Notes: a model not told the origin generated them from the sequence alone. A stretch of DNA of 64,000 bases from TPA_inf: Saccharomyces (GCA_000146045.2 BK006938.2:640001-704000); one strand, 5' to 3'. Positions 4,178 to 28,850 are shown, numbered from the stretch's first letter. Translations and numbers: made by a program.

Positions 4178-5035
4178 TTAAGATTGGAGAGCATGCTGCA
4201 AAAAATCAGGGTCTTCCTCCAAGGATTCCTTGATAATGTCTAAACCGCCTTGAAACTCCCCATTTATATAAAGTTGAGGGAAAGTTGGCCATTCAGAAAA
4301 CTTTTTCAAGTTTTGTCTAACAGATTCGTCTCTTAATATATCAAAGAAGCCAAATCTTACTTGATGTTCTCTCAAGATACCCACAAGTTGTCTCGAAAAC
4401 CCGCATTTAGGTTCAGAGGGGCTCCCCTTCATAAATAACATTACCGGCGCGGCATTGACCAATTTAGTCAATCTAGCGTTTATTTGCTCCTCAGTTTCTT
4501 CTTCCTCTTCTTCGTCGTCATCGTCTTCATCATTATGACTCCCCTCATTTACGTTTGCATTTTCCATAGTATGAGTTTGTGATGATCCGGAATTGACTGA
4601 GTTCTTGCAGTCTTCTAATAAAGACACATACTCCTTTGGATCCGCGCCGGATAATTCTTTTAAGATTGTCCCTTTGTGAATTATGATAAAATATGGAACA
4701 GCTGAGATTTCAAAAAGTTCTGAAATTTCCGAGTTTTCGTCCGCATCAATGGATAAGAAAGAGACGTTGGAATTGGAAGGCTCATTACTAATGGCCTCAA
4801 AAACCTGCTTTAATGCTTTGCATGGTTCTGCCCAACTGGTATGGAAATAAAGCACGATTAACTTGTCGCCGGCCGCAGTGGTAGTTAGGTAAGTAAATTG
4901 CTCTTGATCGTTAATTTCAATAACAGGCATTTCCTGAAAAAGTTTTGCTGCTGTGTAATATCTTGCTTGGTGGCGTTTATAACAGTACGAGGTGTAGTTA
5001 AAAGAAAATGCAGATGGAACCTGAAAAGAACACAT
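4178..5035 (-). CDS. GRX3: Monothiol glutaredoxin Grx3 (thioredoxin-like domain plus glutaredoxin domain with a CGFS-type active site)
   Basis: The ORF is 285 aa from the first ATG. A second in-frame ATG at 4930 (M36, [12 protein letters not shown]) begins the thioredoxin-like domain. The CGFS motif (KCGFS) is present, with an acidic linker. Which start is used cannot be decided from sequence alone. Confidence 0.9.
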
Positions 5036-5152
5036 TTAGTCTTTGAAATATATTTTAATGACCTCTTAGTTTGGCATCTCATGACCCGGCACACATTCTC
5101 TGAAAAAAAAAAAAAGTAACTGATGGTTCAACAGAGAAGCCACAGTTAAAAA

Positions 5153-5224
5153 AGGTCCTACCCGGATTCGAACCGGGGTTGTCCGGATCAAAACCGAAAG
5201 TGATAACCACTACACTATAGGACC
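5153..5224 (-). tRNA. tQ(UUG): tRNA-Gln (anticodon UUG)
   Basis: The reverse complement reads GGTCCTATAGTGTAGTGGTTATCACTTTCGGTTTTGATCCGGACAACCCCGGTTCGAATCCGGGTAGGACCT. It has a 7-bp acceptor stem, A box (TAGTGTAGTGG) and B box (GGTTCGAATCC). A minus-strand T5 run lies immediately downstream, with a longer T13 run about 40 nt downstream. Confidence 0.9.
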
Positions 5225-5239
5225 GTAACAACTGTGTAT

Positions 5240-5501
5240 TGTTGTATTACGGGCTCGAGTAATACCGCAGTGTCTTGACAATCCTAATATAAACAGTCTT
5301 AGGGAAGTAACCAGTTGTCAAAACAGTTTATCAGATTAATTCACGGAATGTCACTTATCTTATATATTATATAAAATATGAATCATACTAAGTGGTGGAA
5401 GCGCGGAATCTCGGATCTAAACTAATTGTTCAAGCATTTATACGTTTGGGTAGTTCAGCTAGGGAAGGCCGTGTTTTATCTCATGTTGTTCGTTTTGTTA
5501 T
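5240..5501 (-). repeat. Ty3 sigma LTR, 3'-proximal 262 bp (reverse orientation), interrupted by the Ty1 insertion
   Basis: The sequence starts tgttgtattacgggctcgag, which is the reverse complement of the sigma terminus. It matches the reverse complement of the intact sigma at 28096-28436 with 2 mismatches over the 262 bp compared (by eye). It begins 15 nt upstream of the tRNA-Gln 5' end, the canonical Ty3 target position. Confidence 0.85.
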
Positions 5502-5835
5502 TGAGATATATGTGGGTAATTAGATAATTGTTGGGATTCCATTGTTGATAAAGGCTATAATATTAGGTATACAGAATATACTAGAAGTTCTCCTCGAGGA
5601 TTTAGGAATCCATAAAAGGGAATCTGCAATTCTACACAATTCTATAAATATTATTATCATCGTTTTATATGTTAATATTCATTGATCCTATTACATTATC
5701 AATCCTTGCGTTTCAGCTTCCACTAATTTAGATGACTATTTCTCATCATTTGCGTCATCTTCTAACACCGTATATGATAATATACTAGTAACGTAAATAC
5801 TAGTTAGTAGATGATAGTTGATTTTTATTCCAACA
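5502..5835 (-). repeat. Ty1 3' LTR (delta)
   Basis: 334 bp. Reverse complement of the delta consensus, running from tgagatatatgtggg to attccaaca. Confidence 0.9.
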
Positions 5836-5844
5836 TACCACCCA
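5836..5844 (-). other. Ty1 polypurine tract (TGGGTGGTA) adjacent to the 3' LTR
   Basis: The plus strand reads taccaccca immediately after the LTR boundary. Confidence 0.7.
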
Positions 5845-5857
5845 TAATGTAATAGAT

Positions 5858-8800
5858 CTAATGAATCCATTTGTTTGTTAATAGTTTAAATGTTTTTATC
5901 GGAAGAGGTTTTGTCATCACATCAGCAATGTTCTTCTTGGTCTCGATGTAGTATACGTATAAATTATTACCTGATACTTCATCTCTAAGTCTCATTGCCT
6001 TTGTGCCAAAAAATCTGTTTCTAAATTTCTCTTCATTTGTAGACTTAATTATACTGATCGTTGATCTACTATCAGTAAGTGAGCCTTTAATAATTGGTTT
6101 CTTGTTAAGTTCTTGCACAAGGTGACTGAGGTTATTCAATAGCGGAATAGCTTCACTGACTGCGTGTATTTCTGCTTCTGTAGTTGAAGTGCATGTTAAC
6201 GAAGCCTTTGTCGACTTTCCTCCAATCACTTTTCCGTTGAGTAGGAAAATGTTACCAATTTGTGACTTGTAATATGGTTGGTTACCATATGAAGCATCGC
6301 TTATTGCGACTAGTTTATTATCTGGCTTGGTAGGTTTGTTTTTGTGCCATATTAATTGTTTATCTCTAGTGTCCCACATGAATTGTATTAACTCATATGT
6401 CATGTCTAAAACTTGCCTAGAGGGGAATAGTATATGTTGAGCAAGTGTGTTGATGTAGTATAGTAAGTCAAATCTAAATTTATATCCAACATATGAAGCT
6501 AGACCAATCAACTTTTGCATTTCATGCACTTTCTCTTTGTATTCATCTTCATCTATTTCTAGTTCATCCTGGTCTATATAATGACCTGGTTGACCTGGAG
6601 CTCTAAGTTTCTTTCCTTTTGGGTTCAAAGGTACGTTTAGTTTGGGTAATTTTTCTGTCAAGGATTTTTCCATACCTAATTTCATGTACTTGCTTCTTTG
6701 ATATTTGATCTCTAATCCAAGTATGTCGTACTGAATTTCGTTATCACCTTCACCCAGATTTATTATCTTTGTATCGTATTGTTTCTTGAGTGTTGTTATG
6801 ATTTTCTTATTTGCATTTAAGTCTTTGCTGAACAATATCATATCATCAACGAATAAGCAAATTGTTACTTGACTATTCTTAAATACGCATGACCATCCAC
6901 GAACTTCTTCCATACCACACTGTTTTATCAGGTATGATTTGATAGTTTCGTACCAGTTCGCTCCACTTTGTTTCAATCCATAAAGTGATTTCTTCAAACG
7001 TATCAACTTATCATTCATTCCTAAATGTGGTGGAGGTCTTATGTATAATTCTTCTTTGATGTCTGCATACAAATATGCCGAAGATATGTCTAATTGTGTA
7101 ATATAGTAGTTATTGTCTAATGCAAGTGACAGGGATGTCATTAATGCATAGTGATGTACGGTATTGGATTGCATGCCTGAGTCGTAAGTGTCAGGATGCT
7201 GAATATCACCTCTTGCAACAAATCTAGCTTTATGAGTACCGTCACGTTTCCTGTTGAAGATAAACATTGAATTTATTACTCTTTTAGGGTCTATTTCTTT
7301 TCTGTCATAATATTTGTCAGTGTCCCAAGTATTCATTTTCAATAGTTGGTTGACTTCTTTGTGGTATGCTTCGATATATTTTTCCTTTTCTTTAATATCT
7401 TTATTATAGGTGATTGCCTCATCGTATCTTAAGGTTGTCCGTATTGGTTTGATTGATTTTACTGCTTTTACAGCTGCAATCAGGTGAATTCGTTTCTTCG
7501 ATCTCGGAGGTTCTAAACTACGCATATTCTTAGTATTCCATGTGTCTCGTGATACCTTAATTTCAGTTTCATTATCTTCTAATGATCTTTTCTTACTGTT
7601 GATAGTAGTATAGGCATTAGAGTCACCAATACCACCCAAACTGGAATTAGTTTGATGAGAATTTATCGGTGGGAGTTCTTTAAATGGGTCAGGGAATTCG
7701 GTAGGAGATTCTGGAGGTAGATCAGGGAGTGGGAGATCAGCGATGATAGATTCCTCGGTATTCTGTTCAGAAACAGTAGTTGGCGTTTTGATAGGAACAA
7801 TATTGTGCGATGAATTATTTTCCGGTGGAGAAGCATCGATTGAAGGTGAACGGTGTATAATCCTTTTCTCAGTCTCTTGGTCACTTATCTGCGGAACAGT
7901 TTTGTTGTTGGTACCACCCGTACTGGATATTGGTACGTTTGTATGATTAGTCTCATTTTCACTGTACGAGTCTGAGTGTCTGAAATCTTTAGATTTACTG
8001 GCGTGCGACGACTCATGTGTGTTAGATTGGGACATGGGAGCAAGTAAAGGAACATTTAATTTATGCATACCACCCGAACCGGTACTCTCGATATTGGAAA
8101 TTTGGGGGGTGCTAGATCTCTTCTTTGATGGAAGAATATTAGATTCAGATATGTTGGGGTCAACTTCTCTGGGTGCGCGAATATTGGTTTTAGAAACACG
8201 TTTCGAATCTTCAGTATGAGTTGACGGAGGTGTGGAATCGGTTGGACTCACAGCTTTTGAAAGGACATTTCTCGGTTGCTCAGGATGTAGTTCAATGTCG
8301 GATTGGAAGTCATGGTCAGATTCTATGTTAAGATCATTGGATTCTTGGATCTCATTTGACGCAATGAACGAATGATATGAAGCAGTTAAACGGTTTAAGT
8401 CTTCATCGAAAGTGAGTGCGTCGTAATTGAATTGATCTAATCTGGATTCCTTGCCCTGAAGAATAACATAGTTAGTTGTATCTACTGTCTTCTTTAAGGA
8501 TGGAAGATAGATGATATATCCATAAGAGTTTCGAGACGGATGTAGAGCGTAGCCTGGGATGCCACGAGGATGTATTTTGGAGTTAGGGTTGTGATCATTG
8601 ACGATAACAGGTTGACCGAAAGGTAACAAAGTACTGATATCAAGTCCTGCCAAGCCAGCATGTTGTCTTGCAGATTTTTTGCTTTTAGGTGAAGCTAGTG
8701 AATTTCTCACAATAGTAGAAAATTCGATTGCAGAGAACCATAAATGGTTCGGTAAACCACTACATTGCAGTTGAGTACGGCAGTCATCTAATAAGGTACG

Positions 8801-9820
8801 GTTTAGCCGTTCAGCGACTCCATGTGCTCGGGAATCCGCTGTGGTTGTATAGCATGGAGTTATACCATTTTTTTCAAGGAATTTATGGAGAGTTCTGTTA
8901 GTATACTCAGAACCACGGTCCATTTGTATAACCAAGACACTGGCCTGAAACTGGTTTTTAATAAAAGCTAGTATCGTAGTAAAAACATCGAGGATAGAGT
9001 CCTCGCGACGGTCGTGTAATGGATAAACCCAACGGAATTTTGTTGTCTCATCAGTAAATGAGATGAAATAGGATGGTGCACTATTTGGTAGGTTGTGAAC
9101 TGGACCAAATATGTCAGTATGTAGGTATTGAAAGGGTTCGTATGAATTTTGGTATTTTAGTCGTGAACCTTTGATATGTCTGTGTTTGGTGCTTTTGCCG
9201 ATTAAACAATCAGGACATTGATAGTCAATAGCACTAGACCAGTCGACATCTGATTCGTTAAAATACGTGATGGTGTTATTTTTAAGTGAGTATCGAATTG
9301 TCTGTGCATTGGCATGCGCAAGCATTCGATGAATGAAAGGATAAGGATATTTGCGTGTACTTTCACTTGTATGGACATTATTGATGGTGGGTACGGAGAT
9401 ATTTGATGGAAGCAAGTACTTTTTAGATACCCAGTAAAAGTCTCCATATTTTACGATAGGTGCAAGTACAGTGCCGTCAGATCGTTCTAAGACGTTTTTG
9501 GTAAAGCATGCTGTGATATCTACTGCAGCCAATTCATTCAAACTGAGTAAGTCATAGGCTATGTTAGGAGTGTGCAATACCTTTATTGATGTTTTGGTGT
9601 TGTCCTGGAAGTGAAATTGTAGGTCACCAATAGCGTTAATTGGTATATTTCTTTTTTGAGCATCAACTACGTTTATGCCAGGATTAGATGATGCTGAGTG
9701 TATGTGGTGAGCAGATCTTATAAGGGTTCGTGATGCTCCTGAATCGAGAAGGAGGTGTCCAGGGAGTTCATCATCAGAATGATTAGTGTGATTTACCGTA
9801 GATTCAGTAAGTTCCTGGCC
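5858..9820 (-). CDS. TYB: Ty1 TYB (Pol: protease, integrase, reverse transcriptase, RNase H), expressed as a TYA-TYB fusion by +1 frameshift
   Basis: The 1239-aa ORF starts at its first ATG, but the frame is open upstream to the frameshift heptamer. Recognisable motifs are integrase HHCC/DDE, the reverse-transcriptase YVDDM-like motif (LFVDDMIL) and RNase H. The TYB frame is +1 relative to TYA. Confidence 0.9.
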
Positions 9821-11126
9821 TAAGATGAAGGTCGTGCTTATTGTTCAATTGAATCGGTTCAGTAGTTGATTTACTGATGGAATCGTTGTCCGTGCTGGGA
9901 GAGTTATTAGATGTGGATACATTGTGAGCCCTGGCTGTTTTCGATTTCGAATTATTTGTTTTTTGAGGATTCCGAGCTATAACTTTGGGTTTGGTTGTAT
10001 TCGTATAGCTGCGAGAATCATTCTTCTCATCACTCGGATTTCTCCTGTAATTAGGTTTGCTGTTTCTCGATCCCTGTTGTTCTTCATAAATAGCATGGAT
10101 ATCTAAGAACAGTTCAGCGACTGTCATATTTAGATGTCGATGACGTGTGTAGCGTAAAAATTTATATTCGCCAGATAGACCTCTCATAATTAATTGGCAT
10201 GCGACCTTGTTATTGATATGAATGCCATTATTGTTCAGTCTGTCGATAATGTTTGTGACTTTTGTTTCAAATGCATCTGCAGGTGTACTGCCATTATATT
10301 GCAAATTTGCCAGGGTCACAATGTCGTTTGCCTCTTGGGTATCAGATTGCATTTTTTCAATACTTTTGGAAAGAATTTTCATGATATCCGTATAATCAAC
10401 GGATAGGATGTCTTTGACCCAGGTAGGTAGGAATTGAGAGGGAGCAAATATTTGAAAAGTGTTATACAAGAAGGTGAGTTCATCATCAGTGATCTGACGT
10501 ACGGGTTTTCCGTTTACTGTCGGAATAATACCACCGAGATTCGAGTTTTGTAAAAATTTGATGTATGTTTTAACCCAATTTGGAAAGTCATTAGGTGAGG
10601 TTAACATTGGTGGTGGTCTGACATATTTTTTAGTGGATGTCATATCAGAGTCCGCTGAGGATGAATCAGTAAATGTATTACCTGACTCAGGTGATGGAGT
10701 GCTCAGAGGCGTTCCAACTGATGATGGATACTGCGGAAACTGTGATTGTGGCCCAGGTGGAAAGTACATAGGCGACATTTGATAAGGTGTATACGGAATC
10801 ATAGATGGGTGTCCGTAAAATGACCAACCAGATGGATTGGCTTGGTTTTGGGTCATCATGCACTGCTGTGGGTACGGCCCATTCTGTGGAGGTGGTACTG
10901 AAGCAGGTTGAGGAGAGGCATGATGGGGGTTCTCTGGAACAGCTGATGAAGCAGGTGTTGTTGTCTGTTGAGAGTTAGCCTTAGTGGAAGCCTTATCATA
11001 TTCTTGAATTTTGGAAGCTGAAACGTCTAACGGATCTTGATTTGTGTGGACTTCCTTAGAAGTAACCGAAGCACAGGCGCTACCATGAGATATATGTGGG
11101 TAATTAGATAATTGTTGGGATTCCAT
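9804..11126 (-). CDS. TYA: Ty1 TYA (Gag capsid protein)
   Basis: 440 aa, beginning MESQQLS...; the start codon lies inside the 5' LTR as in Ty1. The length matches Ty1 (Ty2 TYA is 438 aa). Confidence 0.92.
9818..9824 (-). other. Ty1 +1 ribosomal frameshift heptamer CTT-AGG-C
   Basis: The plus strand reads gcctaag, and CTT AGG is in the TYA zero frame. TYA stops at 9804, and GGC opens the TYB frame. Confidence 0.8.
11076..11085 (-). other. Ty1 minus-strand primer-binding site (TGGTAGCGCC, complementary to the 3' end of initiator tRNA-Met)
   Basis: The plus strand reads ggcgctacca directly abutting the 5' LTR edge at 11086. Confidence 0.8.
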
Positions 11127-11419
11127 TGTTGATAAAGGCTATAATATTAGGTATACAGAATATACTAGAAGTTCTCCTCGAGGATTTAGGAATCCATAAA
11201 AGGGAATCTGCAATTCTACACAATTCTATAAATATTATTATCATCGTTTTATATGTTAATATTCATTGATCCTATTACATTATCAATCCTTGCGTTTCAG
11301 CTTCCACTAATTTAGATGACTATTTCTCATCATTTGCGTCATCTTCTAACACCGTATATGATAATATACTAGTAACGTAAATACTAGTTAGTAGATGATA
11401 GTTGATTTTTATTCCAACA
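11086..11419 (-). repeat. Ty1 5' LTR (delta)
   Basis: 334 bp, apparently identical to the LTR at 5502-5835. Confidence 0.9.
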
Positions 11420-11503
11420 GTTATAAGGTTGTTTCATATGTGTTTTATGAACGTTTAGGATGACGTATTGTCATACTGACATATCTCATTTTGAGATACA
11501 ACA
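11420..11503 (-). repeat. Ty3 sigma LTR, 5'-proximal 84 bp (the other half of the sigma split by Ty1)
   Basis: It begins with the GTTAT target-site duplication copy and ends ...tcattttgagatacaaca, the reverse complement of the sigma start TGTTGTATCTCAAAATGA. It is continuous with 5240-5501 once the Ty1 is removed. Confidence 0.85.
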
Positions 11504-11668
11504 TGTATTTTGTGTTTAACAAACTGTATTATCTGAAAACTATATGAACAGATCTTGAAGTAAGCTTGCCCCCCCTATTCCAGTGTATTCAAAATCACAG
11601 TACGTTTTCCTAAAATACCATCATTCATATTTGCTGGTTTATGTTACTACATTGGACTGTATATCCAT

Positions 11669-11994
11669 GTGGGAAATGCCCAATGTACTGATAATTGTTG
11701 GGATTCCACTGTTGGTAAACGCAATAATATTAGGTATACAGAATATACTAGAGGTTTTTCTTCGAGGATCTTGGGATCCAAAATAGGGAATCGGTATTTC
11801 TGCATAATATTGCTATTATTTCTCCTTCTATTTTACATGCTTCATTATCCTATTACATTATCTAGCTATGCAATTCAGCTCTCATTAAGTCTAATGACTG
11901 TTTTTCAATTGTTGTATAATCTTCTTATACCTCATTTGATAATATAGCAATAATATAAAATAGTACTCTATAGGTTATAGGAGTCTTAATACAA
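11669..11994 (-). repeat. Degenerate solo delta (Ty1/Ty2-type LTR remnant)
   Basis: Alignable by eye to the delta reverse complement (ataattgttgggattccactgttggtaaacgcaataatattaggtatacagaatatactagagg...). It has many substitutions and indels and is flanked by further fragments such as ttcgcttcagcttcttcc near 12640-12700. Confidence 0.55.
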
Positions 11995-13606
11995 TGAGCG
12001 CGCCATTATCGTTCTGTAAAGTAAATAGTCATTCACATAACGAGCTAATAAAAATCTCCAGATGGCACACATAGTGTATGGCAACATCAATGAGAAGAAT
12101 AAGGTCTTCGAGGAATAAATTGTTCTAATCATGACAAAAACTACATAACAGAAGACTGAAAGACTGCATTAAAAAAATATTATTAGCATGAACACTAGTC
12201 AAAAAATGACACTAAGATTTCATTCCAACACTACATTTTTTCGGAAAACGTTTTATTGAAGTACTGCTTTATGGTCAGCACGTATCGCTTCATATATGAT
12301 AACCTTACACAGTATCTTTCCGAAAAATCATGAAACGAAGTAACACAGCATCAATTTCTGTGAGAAATAGACAAAGATGTTTCAAAAGTTCCAACATATA
12401 GTGAGCATCGTTCATATACCTCGTACAAATCAAATTTGTCTCTTGGAATACCGAAAATTAGCCGCTCAAACACTCTCCGTTGTTAATGACAATTACACCA
12501 TAGCCGCTGCCGTAGAAAATGCACGGTCTTCCGTGACGAGAAGATTCGGGGGCGAATCGCATAGATCGCTCTTTCTCCTCTTTCTCAATTCTGTCTTATC
12601 TGTATTTATAACATGAGCTCATAAACAAAGTCCCTGTTTATATATATTGATGACTTATATATCTTTCGCTTCAGCTTCTTCCCTCATTTCTACTTAATAT
12701 TATCTTTTGAAATTAGCGCGATCAATTGCATTCTTTTCCACACCACCTTCAAATTTAAGAATTCATATTTGAATCGAACCGTATGTTTTACCTCTCAATA
12801 ACTTGTTTCATTAATAGCTCCTTCCACAACCACCTTCATCTTCTCTGATTTGAATTATTACCGACATGAATGTTACTCTCCTGAAAATGTTAATTATATC
12901 AACTTAACAGGCCTTGAAAGTGAAGTGTTATAGTTTCTCTTCCTTTGTTTTTCCCACTTTCTTTTTTTTATATATATCTTATATTGGTTTAAGCACAGCG
13001 GATTGCTTTCTTCTAATACAAGAACTAGAACATAGGTCCACCCGTGTGATGTTGCATTCTGAAATGTTTAGTTATCTCTGTCAGAACAGCGAGGTAACAC
13101 TTATTTTTGTTACGACCAATCCGTAATTCAAGCGTGGGTATTCATATGACCAGAGATAATAATACAGCGAATACTATTGAAATCGTCCCTTTTTTGTTTA
13201 GGAAGAACGGACAAATCGGTCGTCTGCTCGAAATGATTAGTAGTGTGTCACCCGGATCAGCAAAATGACACACACGAAATACGAGGAAAAAGTCGGTCGA
13301 AAGGGGCAAATGTTATTATAAGTCCCTCCAGTAGTCTTTTTTTTTTCAAATATTCATCATCAAAGGTTACGAAATCTTTTGAGCTATCTTAAACATTCGT
13401 TCTTTTTATCAAATTTCAATTACTAACTTATTTTTTCAAAAAAAATTGCCTCTCCCGGTTTTTAATCATTATTTTTTTCGATTGATTAAGGGGGAAAAGC
13501 AAAGAACGAGAAAACTTGGACAGAAGGTTAATACTCTGACAATTTCAAAACGAAGTAAAAAGAAAAATTATCAAATCAACAAAAAGTACCCGTTACAACA
13601 AAAAAA

Positions 13607-14428
13607 ATGTCCCAAACTCGTGAAGATTCTGTTTACCTAGCTAAATTAGCTGAACAAGCCGAACGTTATGAAGAAATGGTCGAAAACATGAAGGCCGTTG
13701 CTTCATCAGGTCAAGAGTTATCTGTCGAAGAACGGAATCTATTGTCGGTTGCTTACAAGAACGTCATCGGTGCTCGCCGTGCTTCATGGAGAATAGTTTC
13801 TTCGATCGAACAAAAAGAAGAATCAAAGGAGAAATCTGAACATCAAGTTGAATTAATCCGTTCTTACCGTTCTAAAATTGAAACTGAATTGACCAAAATC
13901 TCTGACGACATTTTATCTGTGTTAGATTCTCATTTAATCCCTTCTGCTACTACTGGTGAGTCTAAAGTATTTTACTATAAGATGAAGGGTGACTACCACC
14001 GTTATTTAGCTGAATTTTCCAGCGGAGATGCAAGAGAAAAGGCAACCAACTCCTCTTTGGAGGCTTATAAAACCGCTTCCGAAATCGCCACAACTGAATT
14101 GCCTCCAACTCACCCAATTCGTTTAGGTCTAGCTTTGAATTTCTCCGTCTTCTATTACGAAATTCAAAACTCTCCTGATAAGGCTTGCCACTTGGCCAAA
14201 CAAGCCTTTGATGATGCTATTGCTGAGTTAGATACTTTATCTGAAGAATCATACAAGGATAGCACTTTGATCATGCAATTATTAAGGGACAACTTGACCT
14301 TATGGACCTCTGATATTTCTGAATCTGGTCAAGAAGATCAACAACAACAACAACAACAGCAACAGCAACAGCAACAACAGCAACAACAAGCTCCAGCTGA
14401 ACAAACTCAAGGTGAACCAACCAAATAA
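13607..14428 (+). CDS. BMH2: 14-3-3 protein Bmh2
   Basis: 273 aa. The 14-3-3 signature sequences [21 protein letters not shown] and [21 protein letters not shown] are present, and the C-terminal (Q)17 tail is typical of Bmh2. Confidence 0.95.
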
Positions 14429-15012
14429 GAGCGCTGAGAAATACAAGGGGAAATGAAGATTTACCACTCCAGTTTTCTTGCTAACGAAAATGAATGCAAT
14501 TCGATTTTGATACTTTTTTTAGGGGAAGAGATAATATCTTCGTCTAATACAAATTCACAAAATTTTCAATTTTACCAACTACAAAATATACAAACCTCTA
14601 AAAAAATAGTTTCTTAATATATAACATAAAATAGTTTTTCTGTTACTATTACTTCTATCACTGTTTTCTTCGTGTATTCTTATATTTTGGCTATCGTTCA
14701 GAGTTGAGACAATTTGCGAGAGTAATTGAGTAGTAATTTTCGTATGTTTTAAAATAAGTTCCTTCCATTGTATACGCACCTCTTTCTTCTGTTTTCCTTT
14801 GAATCTTGATCTACCTTACCTATTGAAGGTGAAGGCATCTTTTCTCATTTGATGAAACAGCGCTCCCTGGGTGTAGGGGGGCGGGGGTATAGTAGCGTAA
14901 ATCCGCAACGGAAAAATACTTCGAGTGGAAAACTATGACCATTAATATGTATGTCTTACAAGAGAGGACAATAAACAAAGTCAAATAACCACAAGGGATC
15001 ACAAACGAAAGG

Positions 15013-15444
15013 ATGTCAGTTATTCCTCCAAAATTCTTCAAGATTGCAAATATATCAATTGGCTGCATAGACATTATTGCTGCCCTTTCACAATTGACGT
15101 ATATTTTCACCAATTTAAACGTCTTCCTCTTGGCAGTTTACGGACTGGCACTCTCCGTACCTATCGTCTATCTGGAGTTCAAGGTTCCGTCAAATCTTTA
15201 CAGGTATGCTTCCTTTTACTTTAGTTTTCTTGGAAGGGGTTTATCTTATATTTTACTAAGTCTGATAATCAGCTTCGGCGGTATCTACAACATATTGGCG
15301 GGAATGTTTACTTTTATTTTAGGGGTTGCCTTTATTGTTTTTCATTTTTCCCAGTTTGTGGAAGAACCTGCTAACTTCAGAGCACCCGGCTCATCTTTGT
15401 CAATTGGTGATGATGACATCGACGATGACGATGACATGATTTAA
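15013..15444 (+). CDS. TVP15: Tlg2-vesicle protein of 15 kDa, small multi-pass membrane protein
   Basis: 143-aa ORF with hydrophobic helices and an acidic C-terminus DDDIDDDDDMI; the size and position match YDR100W. Confidence 0.85.
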   Translation: MSVIPPKFFKIANISIGCIDIIAALSQLTYIFTNLNVFLLAVYGLALSVPIVYLEFKVPSNLYRYASFYFSFLGRGLSYILLSLIISFGGIYNILAGMFTFILGVAFIVFHFSQFVEEPANFRAPGSSLSIGDDDIDDDDDMI

Positions 15445-15685
15445 TATTAGAAGCCCATGTCTCTCAATCCGCCGGTGTTACAAAAGCATGGCGAAACAGG
15501 CGTGAGATATTTAATCTTCCATCTCATCTGTATAGCAAATAAAATGTAATTATAATGCAAGATTCTGAGCAAATGAACCAAGCGGTTTTAGTACAGCTAG
15601 GTTGACTTTTTTTATAATATTCTATTTTACATTTTATGATATACTTATATTATTTATATACTAGCTTTAGAAATGATGAAGTTTC

Positions 15686-17467
15686 CTACATTTTCATGGT
15701 TTCTTCAACTCCGCCATTTGATGTCTCAACACTCTTCTGCTTCATTGGCTGCGTTTCCTTTAATAATAGACCGAACCTCTTATCCTTGGCCAAAGTAGCT
15801 AATTGAAAGATCCCTTGAACAATTGAATCTTGTGGATTTAATTCGTGCTGAGAGTGAATCCAGCTCGGTTGACAGGTCTTAGAACCACCAGTTAATCTCA
15901 ATAATTCGGGTCTGTCCGTTGTACTTACACTAGAGTCACATAATACGATGGTATTACATTCACGAGCAACTGGTAAAGAAATCGATTCCTTGGTTGAATT
16001 CATTAAGGATTTAAGCTTGATGGCTGAAACACCCAATTTTGGTAAAGGTAACTCATGCCCAGGTAATGTTAATGTAGAGGTTGCATCATAACTTAAATTA
16101 CCGTTTGGATTGGTAGCCTTTAAAATATGGTCCCATGGAACCCATCTAGCAATTTGTATTGGACTTTCCACACATAAGTAGTTGTTGGAAATCTCACTCA
16201 TCCCAAGTCTAAATGATTTCAAATCTTTCTTTAAGCTTTGGAGTTCTTCTTCATTTTCGTGAACGAAAGGAAAGTTAGAAGATAAATGAGATAACTTGAA
16301 TGGATAAACGCCTTGTTTATCGATTTTAGTTAATAATTGTCTAGAAGTTTTTAATTTAAGAATATGGGTTTGAGCAAAATCTCTAACATATGCACCGGGT
16401 CTTGCAATCAATTCTCCAGCCTTATGAGATTTACCTGTGTAAGAGTCAACGGTTTCTAAAGTTACTAAACCCTTTTTGGTACAATGCTCCAAAGATGCCA
16501 TTTTCAAATCAATTAAATACACTTCACCTGATTGAACAACGAAATCATCACTTGGAATAGCAGAAACATTAGTGAATGGAGTCGATTGTCCACGATCTAC
16601 CACTGTTAAATCCTTGGCATCAGTATTAGATAGCAAATCTGCTTCTTGATGGGACTCTGTCCAAACAACACCCTTATATTCCCTTTCGGCAACAATACCT
16701 TCGTTTTGGCCTGCCAGGAATCTTCTAATCCTTCTTACACGAGAACCAGGAACAACGCCACAGTTATAAGATCTGGCAATAGTATCCACTATAGTTCTAA
16801 TCAATTGGCCTGTGATACCACTTGAAGTTCCTCCCAGTGAGGCAGGAAGCTTTTCTGGAGTCAGAGCACAGGCTAATAAAGCAACAACTGTTTCCATAGC
16901 AATGTGAGCAGCAGCTACAGCATCCGCTTTACCACCTAGTAGTGGCCCAGTGGGTTGAAGAATAGGTTTGGTTTCATCAACGGGGTAAATAACCATAGTA
17001 TGAGAAACTTCAGAGGTGTAACCATCAATATGAACACCTAGTGTAATCTTGACTAAATCCCCCGGTCTCAAAGTCCCAGTGACAGATGATGCAAAAGTGG
17101 AGTCTTTCCCCTTATTCCAGTTTAACAAATTTTGAGTATCATCTATTTCGGGGCACCATCCACCAGAAATTTGGTCGATATCAATAGTGGTTGGAATGGC
17201 AATACCTCTTTCATTAACTTTGTTTTTATAATATTGTTCCAACCGGGTCAAAATAAAAGAATCGGTAAGCAAACATAGCTCTGGCACGGTTAATTGGCGC
17301 TGTGTGGTCTTAGAGTGATATGAATCATTGATCAAAGAAGTAACATATTTCAAAGCAGTTTGTGCGATTTGTCCAGCAGTTCTGTATTTGTTCAAGACCG
17401 ATTCCTGTAGAATATTTTTGTCCTTTAGCAAAATCTGAGTATCCTCGTGGGAGATAGCTAGAGCCAT
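15686..17467 (-). CDS. ARX1: Pre-60S export factor Arx1 (methionine-aminopeptidase-like fold)
   Basis: 593-aa ORF with a MetAP-like core; position and length match YDR101C. Confidence 0.9.
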   Translation of the reverse strand: MALAISHEDTQILLKDKNILQESVLNKYRTAGQIAQTALKYVTSLINDSYHSKTTQRQLTVPELCLLTDSFILTRLEQYYKNKVNERGIAIPTTIDIDQISGGWCPEIDDTQNLLNWNKGKDSTFASSVTGTLRPGDLVKITLGVHIDGYTSEVSHTMVIYPVDETKPILQPTGPLLGGKADAVAAAHIAMETVVALLACALTPEKLPASLGGTSSGITGQLIRTIVDTIARSYNCGVVPGSRVRRIRRFLAGQNEGIVAEREYKGVVWTESHQEADLLSNTDAKDLTVVDRGQSTPFTNVSAIPSDDFVVQSGEVYLIDLKMASLEHCTKKGLVTLETVDSYTGKSHKAGELIARPGAYVRDFAQTHILKLKTSRQLLTKIDKQGVYPFKLSHLSSNFPFVHENEEELQSLKKDLKSFRLGMSEISNNYLCVESPIQIARWVPWDHILKATNPNGNLSYDATSTLTLPGHELPLPKLGVSAIKLKSLMNSTKESISLPVARECNTIVLCDSSVSTTDRPELLRLTGGSKTCQPSWIHSQHELNPQDSIVQGIFQLATLAKDKRFGLLLKETQPMKQKSVETSNGGVEETMKM

Positions 17468-28006: not shown

Positions 28007-28080
28007 TGGTCTCTAGCGGGATCGAACCGCTGATCCCCGCGTTATTAGCACGGTGCCTTAACCAACTGGGCCAAGAGACC
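28007..28080 (-). tRNA. tI(AAU): tRNA-Ile (anticodon AAU)
   Basis: The reverse complement reads GGTCTCTTGGCCCAGTTGGTTAAGGCACCGTGCTAATAACGCGGGGATCAGCGGTTCGATCCCGCTAGAGACCA. The acceptor stem is GGTCTCT/AGAGACC, with A and B boxes present and a TTTTTATTTTTT terminator on the minus strand downstream. Confidence 0.9.
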
Positions 28081-28095
28081 AATTTGGATCGAAAG

Positions 28096-28436
28096 TGTTG
28101 TATCTCAAAATGAGATATGTCAGTATGACAATACGTCATCCTAAACGTTCATAAAACACATATGAAACAACCTTATAACAAAACGAACAACATGAGATAA
28201 AACACGGCCTTCCCTAGCTGAACTACCCAAACGTATAAATGCTTGAACAATTAGTTTAGATCCGAGATTCCGCGCTTCCACCACTTAGTATGATTCATAT
28301 TTTATATAATATATAAGATAAGTAACATTCCGTGAATTAATCTGATAAACTGTTTTGACAACTGGTTACTTCCCTAAGACTGTTTATATTAGGATTGTCA
28401 AGACACTCCGGTATTACTCGAGCCCGTAATACAACA
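28096..28436 (+). repeat. Solo Ty3 sigma LTR (341 bp), 15 nt upstream of the tRNA-Ile 5' end
   Basis: It runs from TGTTGTATCTCAAAATGAGATATGTCAGTATGACAATACGTCA to CTCGAGCCCGTAATACAACA, the canonical sigma termini. Confidence 0.9.
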
Positions 28437-28542: not shown

Positions 28543-28850
28543 TGCCGGAATAAAAATAAATAAATATATCGAATAATATTCTTTATTATTAATGTCGAAT
28601 GAGTTGTTAGAAGACTTCATAACAATTATCGGATTTAATGGAAGCTGAAGTGCAAGAATTGATAATTTAATAAGATAATGAATTTAATATAAAATATAAA
28701 CGGAGAGAGAATAATGTTGTTATATAGAATTGTTGATTCCCTTTTGCGGATTTCTTATATCCTCGAGGAAAACTTCTAATATATATCCAATATAATCGTT
28801 TCCAAATTGTGAAAGAAAAAAAAATCTTCAATACAGTGTATTAGTGCTAC
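28543..28850 (+). repeat. Degenerate solo delta (Ty1/Ty2-type LTR remnant)
   Basis: It begins tgccggaataaaaataaat (compare TGTTGGAATAGAAATCAACT). It contains ggaagctgaagtgcaagaattgataatttaataagat and ends ...cttttgcggatttcttatatcctcgaggaaaacttctaatatat, matching the delta core by eye. The boundaries are approximate. Confidence 0.5.

Follow-up and report, generated by a model that had tools for sequence, protein, structure and literature searches.

How did two retrotransposon families come to lie one inside the other beside a single transfer RNA (tRNA) gene of Saccharomyces cerevisiae, and in which order did they arrive? This question is raised by positions 5240-11503 of a 64,000-nucleotide stretch of chromosome IV of strain S288C (GCA_000146045.2, BK006938.2:640001-704000; hereafter the window, in which positions are counted from the first letter). 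A preliminary description, made from the sequence alone, had reported there a full-length Ty1 inserted in a sigma, the long terminal repeat (LTR) of Ty3, upstream of a gene for tRNA-Gln. The analysis presented here supports, with a probability that we put at roughly 97%, successive retrotransposon integrations upstream of tRNA-Gln(UUG), in which an old delta (an LTR of the Ty1 family) came first, a Ty3 now represented by sigma came second and the Ty1 came third. Sigma is placed before Ty1 because excision of the Ty1 rebuilds a gap-free sigma, and the order is shown directly by natural alleles, since the delta is fixed, sigma is polymorphic and the nested Ty1 is rarer. No evidence contradicting this order was found among the sequence, the alleles and the literature compared. 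The locus is the same object as the annotated YDRCTy1-1 (YDR098C-A/YDR098C-B; Ty1-DR1 in UniProt) within YDRCsigma1.

A Ty3 sigma split by a full-length Ty1

The RNA polymerase III (Pol III) target of the locus is a tRNA-Gln(UUG) gene called by ARAGORN at 5153-5224 on the minus strand, which by its position we take to be tQ(UUG)D1; the Ty1, sigma and this gene all lie on the minus strand and share one orientation. Read along the plus strand, the sequence from 5240 is TGTTGTATTACGGG..., the reverse complement of a Ty3 sigma 3' end, and at 5502 it changes to a Ty1 delta end, likewise in reverse complement (TGAGATATATGTGGG...). An uninterrupted solo sigma, YDRWsigma2, is present in the same window (28096-28436, plus strand, flanked by GAAAG on both sides) and served as comparator. 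It gave two blastn matches against the window at this locus: 5240-5501 (minus strand, the 262-bp tRNA-proximal piece containing the sigma 3' part) at 99.2% identity to its positions 80-341 (E = 2.6e-133), and 11420-11503 (84 bp) at 100% identity (E = 2.1e-39). The two matches share five bases, GTTAT, which form the last 5 bp of the 262-bp piece (5497-5501), constitute the Ty1 target and recur as the second copy of the target-site duplication at 11420-11424; natural alleles with an empty site contain GTTAT once, so that the duplication named in the preliminary description stands. The division of sigma into 262 and 84 bp given there is right in its coordinates, but the 84 bp include the 5-bp duplication, and the true distal remainder, the sigma 5' part on the minus strand, is the 79 bp at 11425-11503. 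The two pieces add up exactly (262 + 79 = 341 bp). The proposed check of excising 5502-11424 in silico also came out as predicted: the rejoined 341 bp match the reverse complement of 28096-28436 at 339 of 341 positions and are gap-free at the junction.

Could the split sigma nevertheless be an artefact of assembly or of chance, with unrelated sigma fragments flanking a Ty1? A match of the 5-bp flanks by chance alone has a probability of about 1/1024, and the doubt concerning chance and artefact is removed because the two sigma pieces, duplicated over 5 bp where they are split, are exactly complementary and because the excision is gap-free. The orthologous region was, moreover, retrieved from 16 assemblies by exact look-ups of the GRX3 and TVP15 proteins and aligned, and the junctions were inspected. 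Repeats are generally hard to assemble, and two of these assemblies (L005 and L006, Logan short-read contigs) stop within the tRNA gene and are uninformative for the site; however, both junctions of the Ty1 at GTTAT were found in two independent long assemblies (L001 and L002) as in the window, and uninterrupted orthologous sigmas occur in natural alleles. With these observations an artefact is already refuted and has practically no probability left.

YDRCsigma1 has the hallmarks of a Ty3 sigma, namely a length of about 340 bp, the ends TGTTGTAT...ATACAACA and homology to other sigmas. It also carries its own 5-bp duplication, TGTAT, in a tRNA-proximal copy at 5235-5239 and a distal copy at the junction at 11504-11508, while alleles without sigma contain a single TGTAT. 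The sigma starts 16 nt upstream of the point where mature tRNA-Gln(UUG) begins, and YDRWsigma2 starts at the same distance upstream of tRNA-Ile(AAU) (approximately 28007-28080, minus strand, ARAGORN; 5' end at 28080). The distance expected for a Ty3 insertion upstream of a tRNA gene is about 16-19 nt from the mature 5' end, and both sigmas combine such a distance with a 5-bp duplication; sigma has the same orientation as the gene at tRNA-Gln and the opposite orientation at tRNA-Ile. Ty3 is known to be tethered to, and to integrate at, the sites where Pol III starts transcription (PMC7459421), and Carr et al. (2012) included both sigmas when they aligned Ty3 LTRs.

The interrupting element occupies 5502-11419 on the minus strand and is, as previously described, a full-length Ty1 of 5918 bp. 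Its 3' LTR (delta, 5502-5835) and its 5' LTR (11086-11419), both on the minus strand, are each 334 bp long, have TG...CA ends, read TGTTGG...TCTCA and show no difference over their entire length. The polypurine tract GGGTGGTA (5836-5843) adjoins the 3' LTR, and the primer-binding site TGGTAGCGCC (11076-11085) immediately follows the 5' LTR; in Ty1 the primer-binding site is complementary to the initiator tRNA-Met. TYA (gag; 9804-11126) encodes 440 amino acids and starts inside the 5' LTR, whereas TYB (pol; 5858-9844) is an open frame of 1328 codons in the order protease, integrase, reverse transcriptase. The two overlap by 38 nt, and this overlap contains, in the TYA frame, the +1 ribosomal frameshift heptamer CTTAGGC (9818-9824), the sole such site in the element. 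Fusion of the frames at this heptamer is predicted to give a Gag-Pol of 1755 amino acids that is identical to Ty1-DR1 Gag-Pol (Q03855/NP_058140.1), and the 440-residue Gag is identical to the S288C Ty1-DR1 Gag (Q03856/NP_058141.1), both by exact-sequence look-up. Pfam recognizes TYA in Gag (E = 1.8e-233) and Pol_BBD (459-533), rve (663-763), SH3_retrovirus and RVT_2 (1281-1455) in Gag-Pol, so the predicted protein has the integrase ahead of the reverse transcriptase, which is the Ty1/copia arrangement. Judged by its sequence, the element is the annotated YDRCTy1-1, a member of the Ty1/copia group (Pseudoviridae), with the LTRs, 5-bp duplication, primer-binding site, polypurine tract, frameshift overlap and Pol order of a complete copy.

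Natural alleles and the order of integration

Among the assemblies, four (L008, L011, L013 and L014) have no sigma and represent the empty site that preceded Ty3, with ...AACTGTGTAT joined directly to TTTGTG... around the single TGTAT. Four others (L007, L009, L010 and L016) carry an intact sigma without Ty1, reading ...TCGTTTTGTTATAAGGTTG... with the single GTTAT. The claim that sigma came first and Ty1 second is borne out by these sigma-only and sigma-less alleles together with the gap-free reconstitution, and the expectation of a strain-polymorphic Ty1 with an empty site elsewhere agrees with the four sigma-only assemblies and with published frequencies. Carr, Bensasson and Bergman (2012; File S2) list YDRCTy1-1 in 4 of 14 strains (frequency 0.29) and YDRCsigma1 in 12 of 17 (0.71). 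The nesting inside sigma is confirmed, with the addition that the sigma is itself polymorphic and retains its TGTAT duplication.

The preliminary description counted two successive integrations at this tRNA gene. Sigma and Ty1 account for these two, but a third element, the old and degenerate solo delta YDRCdelta9 (11690-11959, minus strand; about 75% identical to the Ty1 LTR by blastn and alignment), brings the number to at least three. YDRCdelta9 falls in sequence that aligns in all natural assemblies examined, and it is fixed in the published survey (20/20; Carr et al., 2012, File S2).

The sequence of events that best accounts for the locus is as follows. An ancient Ty1-family insertion left the degenerate solo delta, which is now fixed in the species. 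A Ty3 next integrated at the transcription start of the tRNA gene, at the 16-nt distance given above, with duplication of TGTAT, and LTR-LTR recombination would then have reduced this full-length Ty3 to a solo sigma. Finally, Ty1 complementary DNA entered sigma at a point 273-277 bp upstream of tRNA-Gln(UUG) and in the orientation of that gene, duplicating GTTAT. Ty1 is directed by the binding of its integrase to AC40, a subunit of Pol III, and enters positioned nucleosomes in roughly the first kilobase upstream of tRNA genes; the YDRCTy1-1 target lies inside this 1-kb region and in that of the first three positioned nucleosomes, to which this targeting rule applies (PMC7459421). No full-length Ty3 was present at the sigma site in the assemblies examined.

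Several observations concern individual alleles. The S288C sigma differs from the Ty1-free sigma of L007, L009, L010 and L016 at window positions 5268 and 5352 (rejoined positions 29 and 113), where these four share the bases of YDRWsigma2; in L007 and L009, which have a 1-bp indel, only substitutions ahead of the indel count in this comparison. The sigma of L016 is identical to YDRWsigma2 across all 341 bp. In L012, which has no sigma, a solo delta (locus approximately 6266-6602) is flanked by CTAAA (window 11610-11614) and lies 117-121 bp upstream of the tRNA gene. One assembly (L003; GCA_031758555.1, CP134412.1) was considered as a natural empty site and set aside: it is without the tRNA gene, sigma, Ty1 and the old delta, and window 12781-13523, upstream of BMH2, is missing from it as well. 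We infer that it is a redesigned synthetic chromosome IV, since its coding DNA is recoded (about 97.5% identity), its intergenic DNA is unchanged (100% identity) and the same GRX3 protein is labelled "synthetic construct", and it was left out of the natural alleles.

Further insertions in the orthologous sigma

Two assemblies contain a different Ty1-family insertion in the orthologous sigma, while their GTTAT site is empty. In L004 (GCA_029990645.1) this is another full-length Ty1 of 5918 bp (locus 11200-17117, read in the orientation of the window) with GAATC on either side (window 5380-5384), and in L015 (GCA_000977415.2) it is a solo delta (locus approximately 5960-6296) flanked by CATAC (window 5384-5388). 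The two resemble YDRCTy1-1 in belonging to the Ty1 family, in lying inside the orthologous sigma and in having a 5-bp duplication each, but they differ from it in their opposite orientation and in an LTR subtype of 338 bp that is about 87% identical to the S288C delta. They lie 113-117 bp nearer to the tRNA gene than the S288C Ty1 and only 4 bp apart from each other, and the three insertion distances upstream of the gene are 156-160, 160-164 and 273-277 bp. One 341-bp sigma has accordingly received three independent Ty1-family insertions, in both orientations, among about 16 assemblies. Between the two 338-bp LTRs of the L004 Ty1 there are 8 differing positions, and the Gag frame of this element ends after 331 amino acids; this copy may be defective, or the sequence may contain an assembly error.

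The independent insertions are consistent with the hot spot that exists upstream of tRNA genes in general. That the solo sigma itself is a preferred landing pad for Ty1, over and above this hot spot, is an idea prompted by the three insertions in one LTR and appears unlikely to us; if it were true, a Ty3 LTR beside a tRNA gene might place a nucleosome where it particularly favours Ty1 integration.

Composition of YDRCTy1-1, neighbouring loci and significance

Because the structure of YDRCTy1-1 is intact and its LTRs are identical, the element appears to be young and is probably competent for transposition, and Carr et al. (2012) placed it in their 'Active' clade. Its internal sequence is not uniform. 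Most of it is 97-100% identical to the L004 Ty1, whereas window 5840-6670 (element nucleotides approximately 4750-5580, in 3' pol) is only 85-94% identical, and YDRCTy1-1 is reported to have 1.3 kb in common with YDRCTy2-1 at 99% identity (PMC3536649). On the basis of this local divergence and the reported identity, the element reads as a Ty1/Ty2 mosaic, that is, a Ty1 with a pol segment derived from Ty2. An assignment to Ty2 as a whole was rejected, as at 90% identity its Gag clusters with those of Ty1-OR, Ty1-DR3, Ty1-ML1 and Ty1-BR; Carr et al. (2012) class its LTRs as TY1.

This composition bears on how the present copy reached GTTAT. Homologous recombination or gene conversion could have replaced a prior element or solo delta at this site, in which case the present copy would not be the original integrant and its identical LTRs would be uninformative about first occupancy. 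The mosaic structure and the identity shared with YDRCTy2-1 would fit such a replacement, as would the report that Ty elements at this locus are often recombination substrates (PMC3536649). However, a mosaic could equally form before integration, during reverse transcription of co-packaged RNAs, and in the assemblies examined GTTAT is either empty or occupied by a full-length element, with no solo delta at this site. We consider replacement very unlikely, and the nesting order with sigma first would be the same either way.

Three steps of this account are less firm than the order of events. Gene conversion between Ty copies could likewise produce identical LTRs, and the Ty2-like segment within pol counts against equating LTR identity with youth. 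The derivation of the solo sigma from a full-length Ty3 is suggested by the kept TGTAT duplication, and the activity of YDRCTy1-1 is deduced from its intact structure. Successive integration of delta, Ty3 and Ty1 remains the reading that we favour.

The tRNA-Ile(AAU) locus elsewhere in the window offers a parallel. About 190 bp past YDRWsigma2, and upstream of tRNA-Ile, lies YDRWdelta10 (28626-28784), a degenerate solo delta that is about 76% identical to the Ty1 LTR, so that by its sequence this locus likewise holds the record of two insertion events. In the survey of Carr et al. (2012) YDRWsigma2 (668094-668434) is present in 12 of 19 strains, and YDRWdelta10 is fixed (File S2).

The open reading frames around the Ty1 locus were matched by protein look-up to GRX3, ARX1, ARP10 and TMN2 of S. 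cerevisiae. The longest frame of GRX3 (4178-5035) reaches 285 amino acids through an upstream ATG, the S288C RefSeq product has 250, and strain annotations include both lengths. The called product of BMH2 (13607-14428) ranges from 271 to 275 amino acids among strains, presumably owing to its C-terminal polyglutamine tract; an exact match to the BMH2 sequence of the window was absent from the protein collection, in which the neighbouring proteins were found.

Both the nesting and the polymorphism are already published, and the locus is in this respect an ordinary one. In File S3 of Carr et al. (2012) YDRCsigma1 is entered as chrIV_s64-_TY3 with fragments 645238-645499 and 651418-651501, and YDRCTy1-1 as chrIV_i2-_TY1 (645508-651417), tagged "REannotate_1-nested" between the sigma fragments. 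Adding 639,998 to the Ty features of the window gives the sacCer2 chromosome IV coordinates used there, except that their RepeatMasker fragments are about 8 bp short at one end per delta, whereas the exact LTR ends determined here are 5502 and 11419. The same file contains several further nestings, and other nested Ty elements at tRNA genes of S288C ('1-nested', '2-nested') show the same Pol III-targeted pile-up of Ty1, Ty2, Ty3 and Ty4 LTRs. Compared with these, the YDRCTy1-1 case is unusually clean: neither duplication has been altered, nothing is missing from the outer LTR, and the inner element is a full-length copy whose two LTRs do not differ. The repeated independent insertions in the orthologous sigma go slightly beyond the literature consulted and are a small addition to it.

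YDRCTy1-1 also has practical relevance as a substrate for ectopic recombination, as it forms the right-hand boundary of a recurrent 515-650 kb amplification of chromosome IV (PMC3536649). For the biology of yeast retrotransposons, the locus provides a textbook-clean case in which a single safe harbour, upstream of a Pol III gene, was used by two families and in which every intermediate allele persists within the species.

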